4,596 nucleotides of DNA, from the IMG/VR virus record IMGVR_UViG_2734482571_000008. One strand, written 5' to 3'. The position numbers were made by a program, and so were the translations under genes. Below the pieces are notes generated by a model. That model had not been told where the DNA came from and made no database searches. It saw only the letters and a list, made by a program, of their open reading frames with translations. Positions 1-4,596 of the stretch are shown here, piece after piece. The DNA comes from a virus (Duplodnaviria > Heunggongvirae > Uroviricota > Caudoviricetes). Within the stretch, counting starts at the first letter, position 1; each line of letters starts with the position of its first letter.

Positions 1-753
1 TTTTCTGCTCATTATTAGCTCCTTCTGATGCCATTCTATTTCAGGAAGGAGTGTCCGTTAAACTCAGGCTACCTCAGGTTATTCGCTTCTGGGCATGGGC
101 GGATCAACAAATGATAGACGGTAATGCAGATTGTAACGCTCGCGGCGTTACAAAAAGTGCAATAGATCGCATCACTTTTATGTCTGGTTTTGCTGATGCG
201 TTAATTCAGGTTGGATGGCTGGTCGAAAATGACGGAGGGCTTTCTCTACCTAACTTTGAACGTCATAACGGAAAAAGCTCTAAAAAAAACGGGCGGTTAC
301 AAACGAGCGAGTAACAAAAATACGCGAACTGAAACGAAAAGGTAACGCTGCCAGCGTTACACAAACGGATCAAAAAGCGTTACCAGAGGAAGAGGAAGAG
401 GAAGATCTAAATACTGATCTCCCCCTCGCCAAAAACGAGCGTCTAAAAAATTCGAGCCGGAGGCTATTGAGCTGCCCGATTGGTTGCCGGAAACACTCTG
501 GCATGAGTGGGTCCGGTTCAGACAGGCATTGCGAAAACCGATTCGAACGGAGCAGGGCGCTAACGGGGCGATACGGGAACTGGAAAAATTCCGTCAGCAG
601 GGTTTTACACCTGAGCAGGTGATTCGACACAGCATCGCCAATGAATACCAGGGCCTGTTCGCGCCGAAAGGTGTTCGGCCTGAGACGTTGCTCCGACAGG
701 TTAACACCGTCTCGTTGCCGGACAGTGCGATCCCGCCAGGCTTCAGGGGGTAA
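1..753 (+). pseudogene. Phage replication protein, YdaU-like N-terminal region joined to a DnaT-like C-terminal domain; 5'-partial (starts upstream of window) and split across three reading frames by two apparent 1-nt deletions in poly-A tracts
   Basis: Frame 3 is open from the window edge to a stop at 312-314. Frame 2 is open from 284 through an acidic (GAGGAA)3-encoded linker (VTKIRELKRKGNAASVTQTDQKALPEEEEEEDL...). Frame 1 is open from 418 to a stop at 751-753 and encodes ...ELPDWLPETLWHEW...LLRQVNTVSLPDSAIPPGFRG, which closely matches the C-terminus of E. coli primosomal protein DnaT as I recall it (...PDWQPD...RDVNTVSEPDSQIPPGFRG). The frame switches coincide with A8 (282-289) and A6 (445-450). 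Adding one A at each gives a continuous ORF. The position immediately upstream of a dnaC paralog mirrors the host dnaT-dnaC operon. Confidence 0.6.
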
Positions 754-759
754 CGGACC

Positions 760-1196
760 ATGAAAAATATTGCGACAGGCGGCGTTCTGGAACGCATCCG
801 CCGACTGACCCCGCCACATGTAACCGCCCCATTCAGAACGGTAGCGGAGTGGCGCGAGTGGCAACTTGCTGAAGGCCAGAAACGTAGCGAGGAGATCAAC
901 CGCCTGAATCGCCAGTTGCGGGTGGAAAAAATTCTGAATCGCTCAGGCATCCAGCCGTTGCACCGTAAATGCTCGTTTGCGAATTACCAGGTGCAGAACG
1001 ACGGCCAGCGATACGCGTTAAGCCAGGCGAAATCCATCGCCGATGAACTGATGACCGGGTGTACAAATTTTGCGTTCAGCGGAAAACCTGGTACCGGGAA
1101 GAATCACTTAGCGGCAGCTATCGGGAATCGCCTGCTGAAAGACGGTCAGACAGTGATTGTGGTTACCGTGGCTGATGTTATGAGCGCCCTGCACGC
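760..1196 (+). CDS. dnaC: DnaC-family replicative helicase loader (AAA+ ATPase), prophage paralog (Rac YdaV-like); 3' end lost in the N gap
   Basis: ATG at 760, 6 nt after the upstream stop, with a G-rich SD-like run (aggggg, 742-747). The translation MKNIATGGVLERIRRL...RSGIQPLHRKCSFANYQVQNDGQRYALSQAKSIADEL...FAFSGKPGTGKNHLAAAIGNRLLKDGQTVIVVTVADVMSALH aligns along its length with E. coli DnaC as recalled, including Walker A GKPGTGKNH. The ORF-track extension to 1593 is an artifact of translating through the N run. Confidence 0.85.
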
Positions 1197-1537
1197 NNNN
1201 NNNNNNNNNNNNNNNNNNNNNNNNNNNNNNNNNNNNNNNNNNNNNNNNNNNNNNNNNNNNNNNNNNNNNNNNNNNNNNNNNNNNNNNNNNNNNNNNNNNN
1301 NNNNNNNNNNNNNNNNNNNNNNNNNNNNNNNNNNNNNNNNNNNNNNNNNNNNNNNNNNNNNNNNNNNNNNNNNNNNNNNNNNNNNNNNNNNNNNNNNNNN
1401 NNNNNNNNNNNNNNNNNNNNNNNNNNNNNNNNNNNNNNNNNNNNNNNNNNNNNNNNNNNNNNNNNNNNNNNNNNNNNNNNNNNNNNNNNNNNNNNNNNNN
1501 NNNNNNNNNNNNNNNNNNNNNNNNNNNNNNNNNNNNN
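1197..1537. other. Run of 341 N: assembly or scaffold gap, or masked sequence
   Basis: Uninterrupted n characters from 1197 to 1537. A DnaC-like protein of about 245 aa starting at 760 would end near 1500, so the gap plausibly hides the 3' end of that gene plus a short intergenic spacer. Confidence 0.95.
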
Positions 1538-1553
1538 AGTTTCAGGAGGATTT

Positions 1554-1976
1554 ATGGCGAAACCTTTTACTCCCGAACAGCGGGAAGAACTGAAGACGCG
1601 AATTGTGGAACTCGTGCATCAGGACGGTCGGGTCACGATTCGGCAGTTGTCAGATGAAACAGGTATCAGTCGTGCGTCTGTCGGTCGCTTATGCATAGAA
1701 CTGGTCGCAAGTGGTGATGTATATAATTCTGGCTACGGCTTATTCCCGTCTGAACAGGCTCGCAAGGACTGGCAAAGCGCCCGCAAAAAACTCTCGAGAG
1801 TAAAGGTGAGGAAACCGGTTGTTGTTGATCCGGACCTTATCTGGTCATTACCTGACGGAGAAATACGCCGCTACGACAGGCGCCTGAATATAATCTGTCG
1901 CGAGTGCCGGAAGAGCGAAGCTATGCAGCGTGTACTGGCTTTCTATCAGGGTAATTTTCAGGAGGCGATACTGTGA
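1554..1976 (+). CDS. Hypothetical protein, 140 aa, with a probable N-terminal winged-helix/HTH DNA-binding domain; occupies the position of Rac ydaW / lambda ren
   Basis: Strong SD aggagga (1544-1550) ahead of ATG 1554. The N-terminal segment RVTIRQLSDETGISRASVGRLCIELVASGDV has an HTH-like pattern. The C-terminal part is basic with a CRECRK motif. The stop TGA (1974-1976) directly abuts the next ATG. No confident family assignment from sequence alone. Confidence 0.6.
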   Translation: MAKPFTPEQREELKTRIVELVHQDGRVTIRQLSDETGISRASVGRLCIELVASGDVYNSGYGLFPSEQARKDWQSARKKLSRVKVRKPVVVDPDLIWSLPDGEIRRYDRRLNIICRECRKSEAMQRVLAFYQGNFQEAIL

Positions 1977-2034
1977 ATGAAATTAGCTATCAGGCTTCAA
2001 TTACCGCTGGCATTCGCATCAAAGGAGAGGAGCA

Positions 2035-2390
2035 TGGAAATAAAACCAGAAGATGAGTTAAGCAATATCGTTTTATTTCCGGTAAAAGAGGATGACCCTC
2101 GTAATCAGGTTAATTTTCTTTATGAGCCATCGGAAAGACCATATTGCCATCACGCCTCTGTACGGGTTGACGAAAAAGAGCGTCAGGTCCGCTGTAAAAT
2201 CTGCGGTGCGGTTGTGGAGCCGTTTGACTGGATGCTCTCTGTGGCAAAAAGAGAAACCAGACTGGCAGATGATGTAAGGCTATTGCGCCAGGAGGAACAG
2301 GAAAGGCGGAGAAATATAGAAAAGCTGATACAGATTGAGCGTAACGCGAAAGCGCGGATACGCAGGGCGACAAAATCCAGAACTGAATAA
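2035..2390 (+). CDS. Hypothetical protein, about 118 aa, with a putative Zn-ribbon-like motif (CHH-x16-CxxC) followed by a charged, probably coiled-coil, C-terminal helix; an alternative in-frame start at 1977 would give 137 aa
   Basis: ORF 1977..2390 in the track. The internal ATG at 2035 is preceded by a strong SD (aggagagga, 2023-2031), which makes it the more likely start. Motif PYCHHASVRVDEKERQVRCKICG, then RLADDVRLLRQEEQERRRNIEKLIQIERNAKARIRR. Function unknown. Confidence 0.55.
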
Positions 2391-2537
2391 TTAAATTTAG
2401 CACTGTTAAAAATTTAATCCTTAACCGGAGGGATTTCTGCACCCTCAAATCATCAGGAGACCACCCGAAAGGGCGGGGAGCAGTCACACATCTGTTTCCG
2501 ATAGCCCCGTTCTAATGCTACACTCTTTGATATTTTT

Positions 2538-3224
2538 ATGACCCCAATAAACATATTTATGACAGTTGCTGATTTCAAACGGCCCAAATTGGAGCTCCCA
2601 AACGGGGCAAACAAACTACTACTGCACTCTTGCTGTGCTCCATGTTCCGGTGAGGTGATGGAGGCGCTTCAGGCCTCGGGAATCGACTACACCATCTTTT
2701 TCTACAACCCGAACATTCATCCTCAGAAAGAGTATTTAATTCGTAAGGATGAGAATATTCGCTTTGCTGAACAACACGGCGTGCCGTTTATTGATGCTGA
2801 TTACGACACAGACAACTGGTTTGAACGAGCCAAAGGAATGGAATGGGAGCCCGAACGAGGGATCCGTTGCACCATGTGTTTTGACATGCGTTTTGAGCGG
2901 ACAGCGCTGTACGCCGCTGAAAATGGTTTCAGTGTGATCAGCAGTTCACTGGGCATTTCACGCTGGAAAAATATGCAGCAGGTTAACGACTGTGGGCGGC
3001 GAGCCGTCGCGCATTATCCGGGCATGGTGTACTGGGATTATAACTGGCGCAAGCAGGGCGGCTCGTCCCGTATGATTGAAATCAGCAAGCGCGAAAAATT
3101 CTATCAGCAGGAATATTGTGGCTGTGTGTATTCTCTGCGCGATACCAATCTACACCGCAAATCTCAGGGACGCCCTCTTATCAAAATTGGTCAACTCCAC
3201 TACGGTAAAGAAGAGAAGGAGTGA
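2538..3224 (+). CDS. queH: Epoxyqueuosine reductase QueH (DUF208 family, cobalamin-independent oQ to Q reductase)
   Basis: The translation carries motifs I recognise as QueH hallmarks: [40 protein letters not shown], and later Cys pairs RCTMCFDM and EYCGCVYS, consistent with an Fe-S/metal site. Length 228 aa is typical of the family. The start is uncertain (ATG 2538 or ATG 2559) and neither has a clear SD. Confidence 0.8.
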
Positions 3225-3245
3225 TTTTATGGGGCACCTTTCTGA

Positions 3246-3275
3246 TTGATTTCATATTGGCGAGGTAAGTAGAAT
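3246..3275 (+). promoter_or_regulatory. Putative sigma70 promoter of the mok/hok transcript: -35 TTGATT (3246-3251), 18-bp spacer, -10 TAGAAT (3270-3275); predicted TSS near 3283
   Basis: Hexamers read directly from the sequence. The downstream leader gcgggtgcttgaggctatctgc... resembles the 5' end of plasmid R1 hok mRNA (ggcgcuugaggcuuucugcc) as I recall it. Confidence 0.4.
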
Positions 3276-3324
3276 GACTGCGGGTGCTTGAGGCTATCTG
3301 CTTCAGGCATGAACACCAAAAGGC

Positions 3325-3402
3325 AGATAGAGAAAAGCCCCAGTTAACATTACGCGTCCGGCAAGACGCTTAACATTAATCTGAGGCCAATTTCATGCTT
3401 TG
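3325..3402 (-). ncRNA. sok: Putative Sok-like antisense RNA, complementary to the mok/hok leader; boundaries approximate
   Basis: On the minus strand there is a promoter-like arrangement: -35 TTGCCT (complement of 3433-3438, overlapping the hok SD), 17-bp spacer, -10 TAACCT (complement of 3410-3415), predicted TSS near 3402. The transcript would be antisense to the mok start region and to a leader segment (ccccagttaacattacgcgtccggcaagacgcttaacatta) that resembles the sok target region of R1 hok mRNA. It contains a small hairpin gcgtc/gacgc (3354-3369) flanked by direct repeats of ttaacatta (3344-3352, 3370-3378). Confidence 0.35.
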
Positions 3403-3607
3403 CACATGTAGGTTAGCCTCTTACATGCCGAAAGGCAAGGAGAAGCAGGCTATGAAGCAGCAAAAGGCGATGTTAATCGCCCTGATCGTCATCTGTTTAA
3501 CCGTCATAGTGACGGCACTGGTAACGAGGAAAGACCTCTGTGAGGTACGAATCCGAACCGGCCAGACGGAGGTCGCTGTCTTCGTAGACTACGAATCCAG
3601 GAAGTAA
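3395..3607 (+). CDS. mok: mok-like reading frame (modulator of killing), an in-frame N-terminal extension of hok, 70 aa
   Basis: ATG 3395 opens a frame that runs into hok. The extension MLCTCRLASYMPKGKEKQA resembles the N-terminus of E. coli MokC as recalled (MLNTCR...KVKEKRA-MKQHKAM...). Confidence 0.45.
   Translation: MLCTCRLASYMPKGKEKQAMKQQKAMLIALIVICLTVIVTALVTRKDLCEVRIRTGQTEVAVFVDYESRK
3452..3607 (+). CDS. hok: Hok/Gef-family type I toxin (small membrane-depolarising peptide), 51 aa, HokD/RelF-like
   Basis: SD aaggag (3437-3442), ATG 3452. MKQQKAMLIALIVICLTVIVTALVTRKDLCEVRIRTGQTEVAVFVDYESRK is near-identical over the first ~44 residues to HokD as recalled (MKQQKAMLIALIVICLTVIVTALVTRKDLCEVRIRTGQTEVAVFTAYEPEE), diverging only in the last residues. 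Single transmembrane helix plus conserved Cys and periplasmic tail. Confidence 0.88.
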   Translation: MKQQKAMLIALIVICLTVIVTALVTRKDLCEVRIRTGQTEVAVFVDYESRK

Positions 3608-3615
3608 GAGTGACC

Positions 3616-3643
3616 GGGCGGGGAGCTGATCCCATCCCCGCCC
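3616..3643 (+). other. Perfect 9-bp GC-rich inverted repeat (gggcgggga / tccccgccc, 10-nt loop) immediately 3' of the hok stop; probable structural element of the hok mRNA 3' region
   Basis: The arms are exact reverse complements. No U-run follows, so it is not itself an intrinsic terminator. Confidence 0.45.
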
Positions 3644-3682
3644 ACCTCTGATGTGTCAGGCATCCTCAACGCACCCGCACTT

Positions 3683-3730
3683 AACCCGCCCATCGCTGTG
3701 ATCTCTCAGCGTTTCGGCGGGTTTTTTGTT
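3683..3730 (+). terminator. Rho-independent terminator for the mok/hok transcript
   Basis: Outer stem aacccgcc (3683-3690) pairs with ggcgggtt (3716-3723) and encloses an inner stem cgctg/cagcg (3694-3698 / 3707-3711). A T6 run (3722-3727) follows. The opposite strand has no U-tract, so it is orientation-specific. Confidence 0.65.
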
Positions 3731-3747
3731 GTTTATTTCCGGTGAAT

Positions 3748-3775
3748 TTGATTCGCGCACCTTCGCAGATAGAAT
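3748..3775 (+). promoter_or_regulatory. Putative sigma70 promoter for the downstream genes: -35 TTGATT (3748-3753), 16-bp spacer, -10 TAGAAT (3770-3775)
   Basis: Hexamers read directly. It lies just after the hok terminator and about 80 nt upstream of the ATG at 3857. It uses the same -35 and -10 hexamers as the hok promoter at 3246-3275. Confidence 0.35.
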
Positions 3776-3856
3776 CGACTCACTTAAGTAGCGCGCAGGG
3801 AGAAGAGGGATGGACCCCGAACAGGGGAGAGCTATTTATCTGGAAGGATTCTGAAG

Positions 3857-4144
3857 ATGAAAATCGAAGAATTGCGTGAAATTTTTAGTGAAAATGGCCT
3901 CTATGCTGTGCGCGTTGAGAATGGAGCGATTGTCAGCCATTGCCGCATTAGATGTTTGCAATCTCAACAAAGGAAGAGCGGTGCTGTGTTATTTTATTTT
4001 TGTAATGGACTTCTGACGGACGGTTTTATTTTGCGTGAGGACGAATTTGTCACATCATTACGGGTTTTGAAAGAGATTGGTTTTAAGGCTGGTTTTCTGC
4101 TTTTGCTGAAGAATAAACTCATCTACAATCTTGAGCAGGATTGA
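3857..4144 (+). CDS. Hypothetical protein, 95 aa; low-GC moron-like ORF, positionally equivalent to rem downstream of hokD in Qin (positional inference only)
   Basis: SD ggaagga (3842-3848), ATG 3857, stop TGA 4142-4144. GC content is about 38% in the first 60 nt by my count, visibly lower than neighbouring genes. No recognisable motif. Confidence 0.45.
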   Translation: MKIEELREIFSENGLYAVRVENGAIVSHCRIRCLQSQQRKSGAVLFYFCNGLLTDGFILREDEFVTSLRVLKEIGFKAGFLLLLKNKLIYNLEQD

Positions 4145-4182
4145 ACTCCTGCTGTGTAACACCGTGCCACCGGAGAAAGCCG

Positions 4183-4536
4183 ATGGCACATATACAACTG
4201 GTCAAACAAACCTCTTCCGGATTACTTCTCCCGGCGACGCCGGAGAGTTGCGATTTTCTGCATCAAATCAAAATAGGTGAGTGGATACACGCAGACTTTA
4301 AGCGTGTGTGTAACTACGCATTCCACAAGCGTTTTTTCAAACTCCTGCAACTGGGTTTCGATTACTGGACTCCGGTCGGTGGGGCGATCACGCCTCGCGA
4401 ACGAAAACTGGTGTCCGGTTTCGTTGATTACCTGTGTGAATCAGTAGGCCGGGAACATACGCCAGCTCTGAGCGAAGCCGCAGAGCAATTGAGGTGTACT
4501 GGCAATAGCGGACACTACCATTTGTTCTTTTTTTAA
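4183..4536 (+). CDS. Hypothetical lambdoid-phage protein, about 117 aa as written; possibly the N-terminal part of a longer gene truncated at a T7 run
   Basis: SD ggag (4172-4175), ATG 4183 (MAHIQLVKQTSSGLLLPATPESCDFLHQIKIGEWIHADFKRVCNYAFHKRFF...). The track's TTG start at 4141 overlaps the previous gene and lacks an SD. The stop TAA (4534-4536) is formed at the end of T7 (4528-4534), and the -1 frame is open from 4509 to the window end. Confidence 0.5.
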   Translation: MAHIQLVKQTSSGLLLPATPESCDFLHQIKIGEWIHADFKRVCNYAFHKRFFKLLQLGFDYWTPVGGAITPRERKLVSGFVDYLCESVGREHTPALSEAAEQLRCTGNSGHYHLFFF

Positions 4537-4596
4537 GCAGCCATCTGATGATATTTTTCCCTGAAGGCTGCCGGGGAGATATTCCCCAGACGAGAG

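Follow-up and report, generated by a model that had tools for sequence, protein, structure and literature searches.

The viral record IMGVR_UViG_2734482571_000008 of IMG/VR (Caudoviricetes), a stretch of 4,596 nucleotides (nt) referred to below as the window, carries on its plus strand a gene, queH, which codes for an intact, genuine epoxyqueuosine reductase of the QueH family. The gene keeps the complete set of ligand residues, is held under purifying selection, and lies in a compact cassette that is distributed over prophages, plasmids and chromosomes; in Escherichia coli it always coexists with queG, the gene of the enzyme that performs the same step with vitamin B12 (cobalamin). The product is probably an active QueH that would be expressed from its own promoter in the lysogen and convert epoxyqueuosine at tRNA position 34 (oQ34) to queuosine (Q34) without cobamide, beside the B12-dependent QueG. 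That the enzyme works in E. coli, that its promoter is active in the lysogen and that fitness benefits is what we infer.

The Pfam profile of the QueH family (PF02677, gathering score 23.5 bits) matches the protein with 220.6 bits and an E-value of 1.9e-65, over profile positions 1-174 of 175. Such a match is far beyond chance and confirms the gene as an intact QueH, in agreement with the initial annotation, which had proposed a QueH/DUF208 protein from the letters only and had suggested this profile search. The Pfam scan of the protein yields no family besides QueH, and so gives no membership in QueG. The NCBIfam scan of the protein returned no match, which is ascribed to the coverage of the library release and is not counter to the assignment. 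Searching the Protein Data Bank (PDB) with phmmer retrieves the QueH of Thermotoga maritima (7lc5) with an E-value of 5e-22 over residues 27-203.

To describe the conserved residues, the protein was aligned with the T. maritima segment and 36 representatives (38 sequences in total, 33-72% identity), the latter taken from the 4,755 relatives that an exhaustive search retrieved with E-values of at most 0.001. In the numbering of the 221-residue protein that starts at the second ATG (see below), the invariant positions are C25, C26, N52, R62, E99, R103, C104, C107, K137, Q184, C187, G188 and C189, and C29 is near-invariant, being Asp in T. maritima only. The window protein retains all six family-invariant cysteines plus the near-invariant seventh, and the family-invariant residues together with C29 are likewise invariant among 86 close relatives, where invariant positions amount to 104 in total. 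All the motifs originally read from the translation are there. In the 228-residue numbering (that is, from the first ATG), and all on the plus strand, they are HSCCAPCS (2625..2648, residues 30-37) with Cys32, Cys33 and Cys36, the last of which is the C29 mentioned above; FFYNPNIHP (2697..2723, residues 54-62); and the two C-terminal cysteine pairs, namely CTMC (2868..2879, residues 111-114), whose invariant Cys111 and Cys114 align with T. maritima C87/C90, and CGC (3117..3125, residues 194-196), whose invariant Cys194 and Cys196 align with C169/C171. Li and colleagues are said to have assigned the CCxxC, CxxC and CxC cysteines of QueH to its metal centres in 2021.

The predicted fold is also that of a QueH. 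An AlphaFold2 model obtained from 40 homologues has a predicted local distance difference test score (pLDDT) of 72 and a predicted template modelling score (pTM) of 0.74, and its five best Foldseek matches in the PDB are all T. maritima QueH, with target-normalised template modelling scores (TM) of 0.78-0.81 and E-values down to 5e-10. The T. maritima matches include the queuosine complex 9deu, and the other folds found in this search (TtuA, LarE, YcfA and TilS) score 0.51 or less. By sequence, ligand residues and fold the protein is thus a QueH as the family is defined, and it presumably catalyses the conversion of oQ-tRNA to Q-tRNA without cobalamin. Compared with T. maritima QueH (PDB 7LC5/7LC7/9DEU), the full-length profile match, the Cys ligand set and the predicted fold are alike, whereas identity is about 31-33%, a Cys, which is the family norm, stands where the T. 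maritima protein has Asp13, and there is a basic C-terminal tail of about 25 residues, common to other gammaproteobacterial QueH. Moreover, the gene described here is on a prophage and not at a fixed chromosomal locus.

Concerning the limits of the gene, the region 2538..3224 (+) holds an uninterrupted open reading frame (ORF) of 228 amino acids (aa), as first annotated, and all minus-strand ORFs within it have at most 53 aa. The start coordinate is probably a different one. There are two in-frame ATG codons, at 2538 and 2559, and RefSeq uses the second (window 2559, which is position 20160 of the RefSeq locus). The diverged allele of E. coli A10 reads ATT in place of the first ATG and then runs into a TAA in the same frame; two Enterobacter orthologues likewise carry a stop between the two ATG positions. 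From 2559 on, the sequence is conserved in the A10 allele and in the Enterobacter orthologues. Because of the RefSeq choice and this loss of the first ATG, the conserved start is most likely 2559, giving a coding sequence (CDS) at 2559..3224 (+) of 221 aa, with the ATG at 2538 (228 aa) as the upstream alternative. No Shine-Dalgarno sequence precedes either ATG, which agrees with what had been remarked before.

The gene is part of a mobile cassette (2488..3231, +), i.e. a stretch common to prophages, plasmids and chromosomes whose flanks are unrelated. Homology extends over 2488-3230 in Escherichia phage HannyBb, 2511-3228 in the A10 allele and in Scandinavium, and 2495-3231 in Enterobacter hormaechei, and hence the cassette consists of the gene and some 50-70 nt upstream of it, with a right limit 2-7 nt past the stop codon (3228-3231). 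The upstream part contains a candidate sigma-70 promoter (2496..2524, +) composed of a -35 element TTCCGA (2496-2501), a 17-nt spacer and an extended -10 element TGcTACACT (2516-2524). The block CTnATGCTACAC, which holds the extended -10, is invariant in seven prophage alleles, whose CDS diverge by up to 8%. Enterobacter, Scandinavium, Kluyvera and some Erwinia have TGCTACA(C/A)T equally far upstream of their chromosomal orthologues, and other Erwinia orthologues show GTGACA-N17-TACACT upstream of queH. Of 78 non-phage loci, 30 have TA[CA]A[CA]T in the equivalent 100-nt window, compared with 5.8% of background windows (p = 2e-17); 8 have the TG-extended form, which in all of them precedes the invariant Arg15 codon by 60-65 nt (p = 3e-13). 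This conservation points to the TGcTACACT site as a candidate queH promoter, and the gene appears to have moved together with its native promoter. The predicted transcript start, near 2531, would leave a leader of 28 nt to the ATG at 2559 and of 6-7 nt to the ATG at 2538, which again favours the former as the start.

The initial annotation had seen no promoter for queH, and hence suggested read-through from the early transcript. This is probably wrong, since the conserved motif, shared with the chromosomal orthologues, makes such read-through unnecessary. A generic scan finds no terminator-like site in 1900-3900, and as no terminator would separate the replication genes from queH, in the intact prophage induction would bring additional transcription of the gene from the early rightward operon; in the window, the segment to the left of queH is cut by an IS3-family element at position 76. 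The cassette resembles other lambdoid prophage morons, such as the hok/sok and restriction-modification genes found between the replication genes and the gene of the Q antiterminator, in being a compact, phage-dispensable insert: related lambdoid phages lack it, its neighbouring slot alternates between hok/sok and restriction-modification, and it has a putative promoter of its own. It differs from typical morons in having no recognisable terminator after the gene, and from other lambdoid cargo, with its virulence, exclusion or addiction functions, in encoding a tRNA-modification enzyme.

The distribution of the gene was analyzed in 5,426 complete E. coli genomes. A queH CDS is present in 995 of them (18%) at 93-100% identity, almost always as a single copy, in 1,014 chromosomal and 3 plasmid places, and it is full length in 985 of the 995; every queH row among the matches listed carries the RefSeq label 'epoxyqueuosine reductase QueH'. 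When the adjoining hok/sok leader is included in the query, 851 genomes match at least 80% of it. With the K-12 gene b4166 as query, queG is found in 5,426 of the 5,426 genomes, and therefore every E. coli strain with queH has in it a second enzyme, not orthologous to QueG, for a step that QueG already serves. CP088590, a copy recorded on an E. coli plasmid, was rejected as plasmid-type cargo because it is the same lambdoid prophage module.

The contexts sampled (O157:H7, ST131, strain A10, the prophage-bearing 'plasmid' record, E. albertii and Shigella flexneri) are all lambdoid prophages with differing immunity and late regions, in which queH always follows the DUF977 gene. On the right its neighbours vary and include hok/sok as well as other genes, among them a cytosine methyltransferase paired with an NgoMIV-type endonuclease. 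In the prophage of E. coli O157:H7 Z1768 (locus 7872-9882) a cytosine methyltransferase and an NgoMIV-family restriction endonuclease replace hok/sok after queH, and the site just downstream of the gene is therefore a hotspot of cargo exchange. Such a survey of what occupies the slot in related prophages had been proposed with the initial annotation. Eighty IMG/VR contigs code for a protein 99-100% identical to that of the window; DUF977 directly precedes queH in 68 of 75, and hok follows it in 64 of 78. These 80 copies represent 18 nucleotide alleles, and stop codons interrupt none of them. The isolated Escherichia phage HannyBb has the gene at 96.5% aa identity, annotated as 'hypothetical protein', and thus queH is packaged in a viable phage. 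In contrast, only the hok/sok part of the window is matched by 933W, VT2-Sakai and other Stx phages. The gene is therefore a discrete insert absent from related phages, as expected of moron cargo. The description of the gene as a moron-like second, B12-independent oQ reductase is supported, with queG universal and queH strain-variable in E. coli.

In PHROGs the protein falls in phrog_3217 ('unknown function'), matched over window 2658-3221. This profile begins at residue 34 (221-aa numbering) and does not include the CCAPC motif, which suggests that it was built from N-terminally truncated gene calls missing the metal-binding CCAPC. A second putative phage carrier, 'Acinetobacter phage MD-2021a' (CAKLQH020000001.1 and CAKLQF020000001.1, 78% identical), was rejected because the records are mislabelled bacterial contigs. 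They have 328-378 kb, are filed under Caudoviricetes, label queH a 'putative prophage protein', and show soxR, cynX, tadA and LysR as neighbours. Human-faecal 'Bacteriophage sp.' contigs contain QueH at 31-49% identity, and are short unannotated fragments of uncertain viral origin.

Outside phages, chromosomal queH genes with 78-92% aa identity are found in Enterobacter, Scandinavium, Kluyvera, Kosakonia, Erwinia, Pantoea, Serratia, Rahnella, Pectobacterium, Dickeya, Brenneria, Proteus, Providencia, Photorhabdus, Sodalis and other genera. The phage neighbours of the window gene are present at none of the 78 non-phage queH loci. The flanks in the sampled chromosomes comprise a YgiQ-type radical-SAM protein, glycogen phosphorylase, a dihydrouridine synthase (Dus), TmcA, TonB, a chemoreceptor (MCP) and a LysR regulator. 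The chromosomal genes thus have housekeeping flanks whereas that of the window has phage flanks, while aa identity and the TGnTACA(C/A)T motif at equal upstream distance relate them, and chromosomal queH of other Enterobacterales is the probable source of the cassette. In one E. hormaechei locus a 234-aa ORF of the phage-integrase family (locus 5181-5885) lies directly upstream of queH; the E. hormaechei allele is the closest to the prophage and plasmid copies, and even this copy, though chromosomal, may be part of a small mobile islet.

These data also refine the premise that enterobacteria normally use QueG. It holds for E. coli, given the universal presence of queG there, and does not hold across the Enterobacterales, many of which have a chromosomal queH. 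QueG (E. coli b4166) and QueH belong to unrelated families and catalyse the same last step of the pathway, the former being cobalamin-dependent and the latter iron-dependent (PMC9508795, PMC13443448, PMC5372724), and both are encoded in every queH-positive E. coli genome. The E. coli queuosine pathway has been described (PMC9508795), and QueG is one of four cobamide-dependent E. coli enzymes (PMC11841063). Cobamide-independent alternatives often coexist with the dependent enzyme (PMC6461909). The pairs MetH/MetE and the QueG plus QueH of Staphylococcus aureus are such cases, in which one cell has two enzymes for a single step, only one of them requiring B12, and such pairs are regarded as a buffer against cofactor supply (PMC6461909, PMC13443448). 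Unlike in these pairs, the B12-independent partner in E. coli is strain-variable and delivered by mobile elements.

Selection on the gene was estimated with the Nei-Gojobori method. Between prophage alleles the synonymous divergence (dS) is 0.15-0.44 and the nonsynonymous divergence (dN) 0.006-0.025, with a dN/dS of 0.04-0.08; the E. hormaechei allele, which among those of chromosomal or plasmid type is the closest, gives a dS of about 1.25 and a dN/dS of 0.03. Silent-site divergence combined with low dN/dS speaks therefore for a long stay in the phage gene pool under strong constraint. The G+C content does not set the gene apart (48.6%, against 49.1% in the surrounding DNA).

The cassette (window 2495-3231) is furthermore found on about 100 Klebsiella plasmids, at 83-84% nt identity, on one Salmonella plasmid at 91%, and on further plasmids of Enterobacter and E. 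coli, most of them typed as conjugative or mobilizable. In a Klebsiella pneumoniae IncFIB/IncFII plasmid (locus 4720-7395) queH is solitary, between an IS3 transposase and TonB gene fragments, and in the Salmonella IncFII plasmid it stands between an IS481 transposase and fec genes. The promoter-plus-gene unit is, as judged from these comparisons, recruited independently by plasmids of other genera. The plasmid-carrier genera, Klebsiella and Salmonella, are generally considered to be of the QueG type. Such independent recruitment speaks for an advantage to the bacterium rather than for a use specific to phages. It should be noted that the plasmid genes lie beside TonB fragments or fec iron-uptake genes and insertion sequences (IS), and that the chromosomal queH of Serratia adjoins tonB, which hints at the source neighbourhood of the plasmid copy or at a link with iron-related cargo.

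In the role proposed here, QueH, as an iron-sulfur and cobalamin-independent enzyme, would reduce oQ to Q at the wobble position 34 of tRNA-Asp, tRNA-Asn, tRNA-His and tRNA-Tyr. The most likely origin of the cassette would be a chromosome elsewhere in the Enterobacterales, from which it was captured. It would now circulate among E. coli, Shigella and E. albertii in lambdoid (Rac/Qin-like) prophages, where it occupies the accessory region, with related copies on IncF plasmids of Klebsiella and Salmonella. queH would be lysogenic-conversion cargo, with its own promoter active in the lysogen, such that the host could complete Q-tRNA without cobamide. This role is suggested because E. coli always has the B12-dependent QueG and does not make B12 de novo. 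Frey and colleagues reportedly described in 1988 both the lack of de novo B12 synthesis in E. coli and the accumulation of oQ without B12. Two observations give further support: the gene is intact inside the IS-bracketed prophage remnant of the window, and its slot is constant across prophages with differing immunity and late regions.

Several points weigh against the role as stated. The structural model is of moderate confidence only (pLDDT 72). The generic promoter and terminator scan does not call the queH promoter candidate, its three matches being at chance level; the miss is explained by a -35 element that matches at 3 of 6 positions only, and this weak -35, the missed call and the lack of a Shine-Dalgarno sequence together mean that expression could be low. 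A permissive Rfam scan of the whole window reveals no cobalamin or preQ1 riboswitch nor other leader, only sok, and hence no recognisable regulatory element in the window that would tie queH to cobamide status. No experiment on this allele was found in the searchable literature, outside of which the founding QueH papers lie. We know of no phenotype that separates oQ-tRNA from Q-tRNA in E. coli, nor of a difference in decoding between oQ and Q, and the selective benefit is hypothetical. A bolder version, in which the cassette would be a positively selected host-conversion module that uncouples Q-tRNA maturation from cobamide in QueG-type Enterobacteriaceae, is put forward tentatively and is rather doubtful at present. 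Its carriers would be lambdoid prophages in E. coli, Shigella and E. albertii and IncF plasmids in Klebsiella and Salmonella, and possible settings are cobamide-poor niches or cells that have lost the B12 importer BtuB in escaping phages or colicins.

The orientation of queH along the early rightward operon, with no terminator-like site from the replication genes to queH, would also suit a gene of the lytic cycle, transcribed mainly by read-through from the early rightward promoter (pR) after induction and completing Q on host tRNAs during phage protein synthesis, an alternative already raised in the initial annotation. This seems unlikely, as the cassette brings its own conserved promoter motif and persists on plasmids and in the IS-truncated remnant, beyond a pR transcript of the adjacent DNA. 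Many related phages (933W and VT2-Sakai among them) have hok/sok without queH, the tRNA genes of the prophage (Ile, Arg, Thr and Gly) are not Q-tRNAs, and tRNA pools turn over slowly relative to the lytic cycle. About equally improbable is that the enzyme is active and redundant, brings no benefit as QueG suffices, and is kept by linkage to successful prophages and to hok/sok. The universal queG of E. coli, the want of an oQ-versus-Q phenotype known to us and the adjacency to hok/sok in 851 genomes would fit such a passenger, but the strong purifying selection across alleles (dS up to 0.44), the absence of pseudogenes among the 80 IMG/VR loci together with the 985 full-length copies out of 995 in E. 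coli, the independent acquisition by plasmids of other QueG-type genera, and the retention of queH in the decayed prophage of the window would not.

A phage-borne enzyme of this pathway could, lastly, act on a modified base of the phage DNA or as a counter-defence factor, since phages do use 7-deazaguanine pathway genes for DNA modification (PMC6884629). Against this, which we hold to be very improbable, speak the 78-92% identity to ordinary chromosomal QueH with its 104 invariant positions, the lack of any match of the protein to the PADLOC defence models, and the 41-kb prophage of E. coli FDAARGOS_944 (see below), where no tgt, dpdA or similar gene and no preQ0-synthesis gene is annotated. 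Clusters of the phage 9g type (FolE/QueD/QueE/QueC and DpdA) are, like the present case, queuosine-pathway-family genes on phages; they however put preQ0-type bases into DNA, while the window prophage has queH only, and the survey of phage 7-deazaguanine genes reports no QueA, QueG or QueH homologues in the viruses analysed, DNA-modifying phages included (Hutinet 2019, PMC6884629). Conversion of the lysogen by an active, cobamide-independent QueH remains our preferred explanation.

The enzyme family, its reaction and the gene name are already known, and the gene is not a newly recognised one, for RefSeq says QueH in every sampled E. coli record. As cargo of E. coli prophages or plasmids, on the other hand, no description of queH was found in the searchable literature, to which the founding paper (Zallot 2017) does not belong; several apparent matches in the literature turned out to be author names. 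Phage annotation can be corrected at once, namely the 'unknown function' of phrog_3217 and the 'hypothetical' label in HannyBb. If active, the prophage gene would be a tRNA-modification enzyme carried as cargo by a temperate phage. E. coli K-12 is the reference organism for queuosine and is treated as QueG-only, with a B12-dependent Q/oQ ratio, yet about 18% of the sequenced E. coli strains, including ST131, APEC O1, strain 042 and some O157:H7, would then complete Q without B12, which would bear on studies of tRNA modification and codon decoding across strains. Were the host-conversion proposal true, roughly every fifth E. coli strain would, in the absence of B12, have a tRNA modification state unlike that of K-12. 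Mechanistically queH is unsurprising, and it offers a clean case of a mobile-element-borne, strain-variable tRNA-modification capacity in E. coli.

Turning to the genomic setting, window positions 76-4489 are 99.6% identical to a lambdoid prophage of E. coli FDAARGOS_944, whose integration separates ybhA from the remaining gal-bio interval. Its gene order is integrase, excisionase, recombination genes, repressor, cro, ydaT, a replication initiator and ydaV (DnaC-like), followed by DUF977, a 118-aa zinc-ribbon protein, queH, hokD/sok and a hypothetical gene, and then by DUF1367, DUF1364, DUF1133, four tRNA genes and the lysis and morphogenesis genes. The nin-like accessory region first given as the location of queH is correct, and so is the hok/sok neighbour; in this lambdoid prophage the region extends from the replication genes to the late-gene regulator. 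The tRNA genes of the intact prophage (Ile, Arg, Thr and Gly, locus 23414-23724) precede the lysis genes, and none is of the queuosine family.

To the left of queH, the DUF977 gene (1554..1976, +; Pfam DUF977, 116.5 bits) is the usual neighbour of prophage queH. Between the two lies a 118-aa zinc-ribbon-like phage protein (2034..2390, +), a RefSeq CDS that matches phrog_1621 (unknown function) with 189.7 bits and, weakly, Zn_Ribbon_TF; it has a charged C-terminal helix and takes this position in this prophage type only. To the right is the hok/sok type I toxin-antitoxin module (3282..3607, +), identified by Rfam sok (RF01794, 117 bits at 3282-3457), Pfam HOK_GEF (79.9 bits) and the RefSeq hokD CDS, which maps to 3452-3607.

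Prophage homology ends at 76 and 4489, and both window ends correspond to the two ends of an element of about 1.26 kb in an S. flexneri locus, whose ORFs encode an IS3-family transposase (324 bits). The left end (1..77) matches S. flexneri locus 9202-9278 at 100% and cuts the phage replication-initiator gene, and the right end (4489..4596) matches locus 8014-8120 at 98% and cuts the DUF1367 gene. By this comparison the window holds a 4.4-kb prophage remnant between two direct IS3-family copies, and its queH and hok/sok segment is bracketed by the IS3 ends like a composite element. Finally, the C-terminal part of the ydaV-like (DnaC-like) gene is hidden by 341 consecutive N (1197-1537); the stretch that matches it in the near-identical E. 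coli prophage has 308 nt, and thus the two lengths differ.

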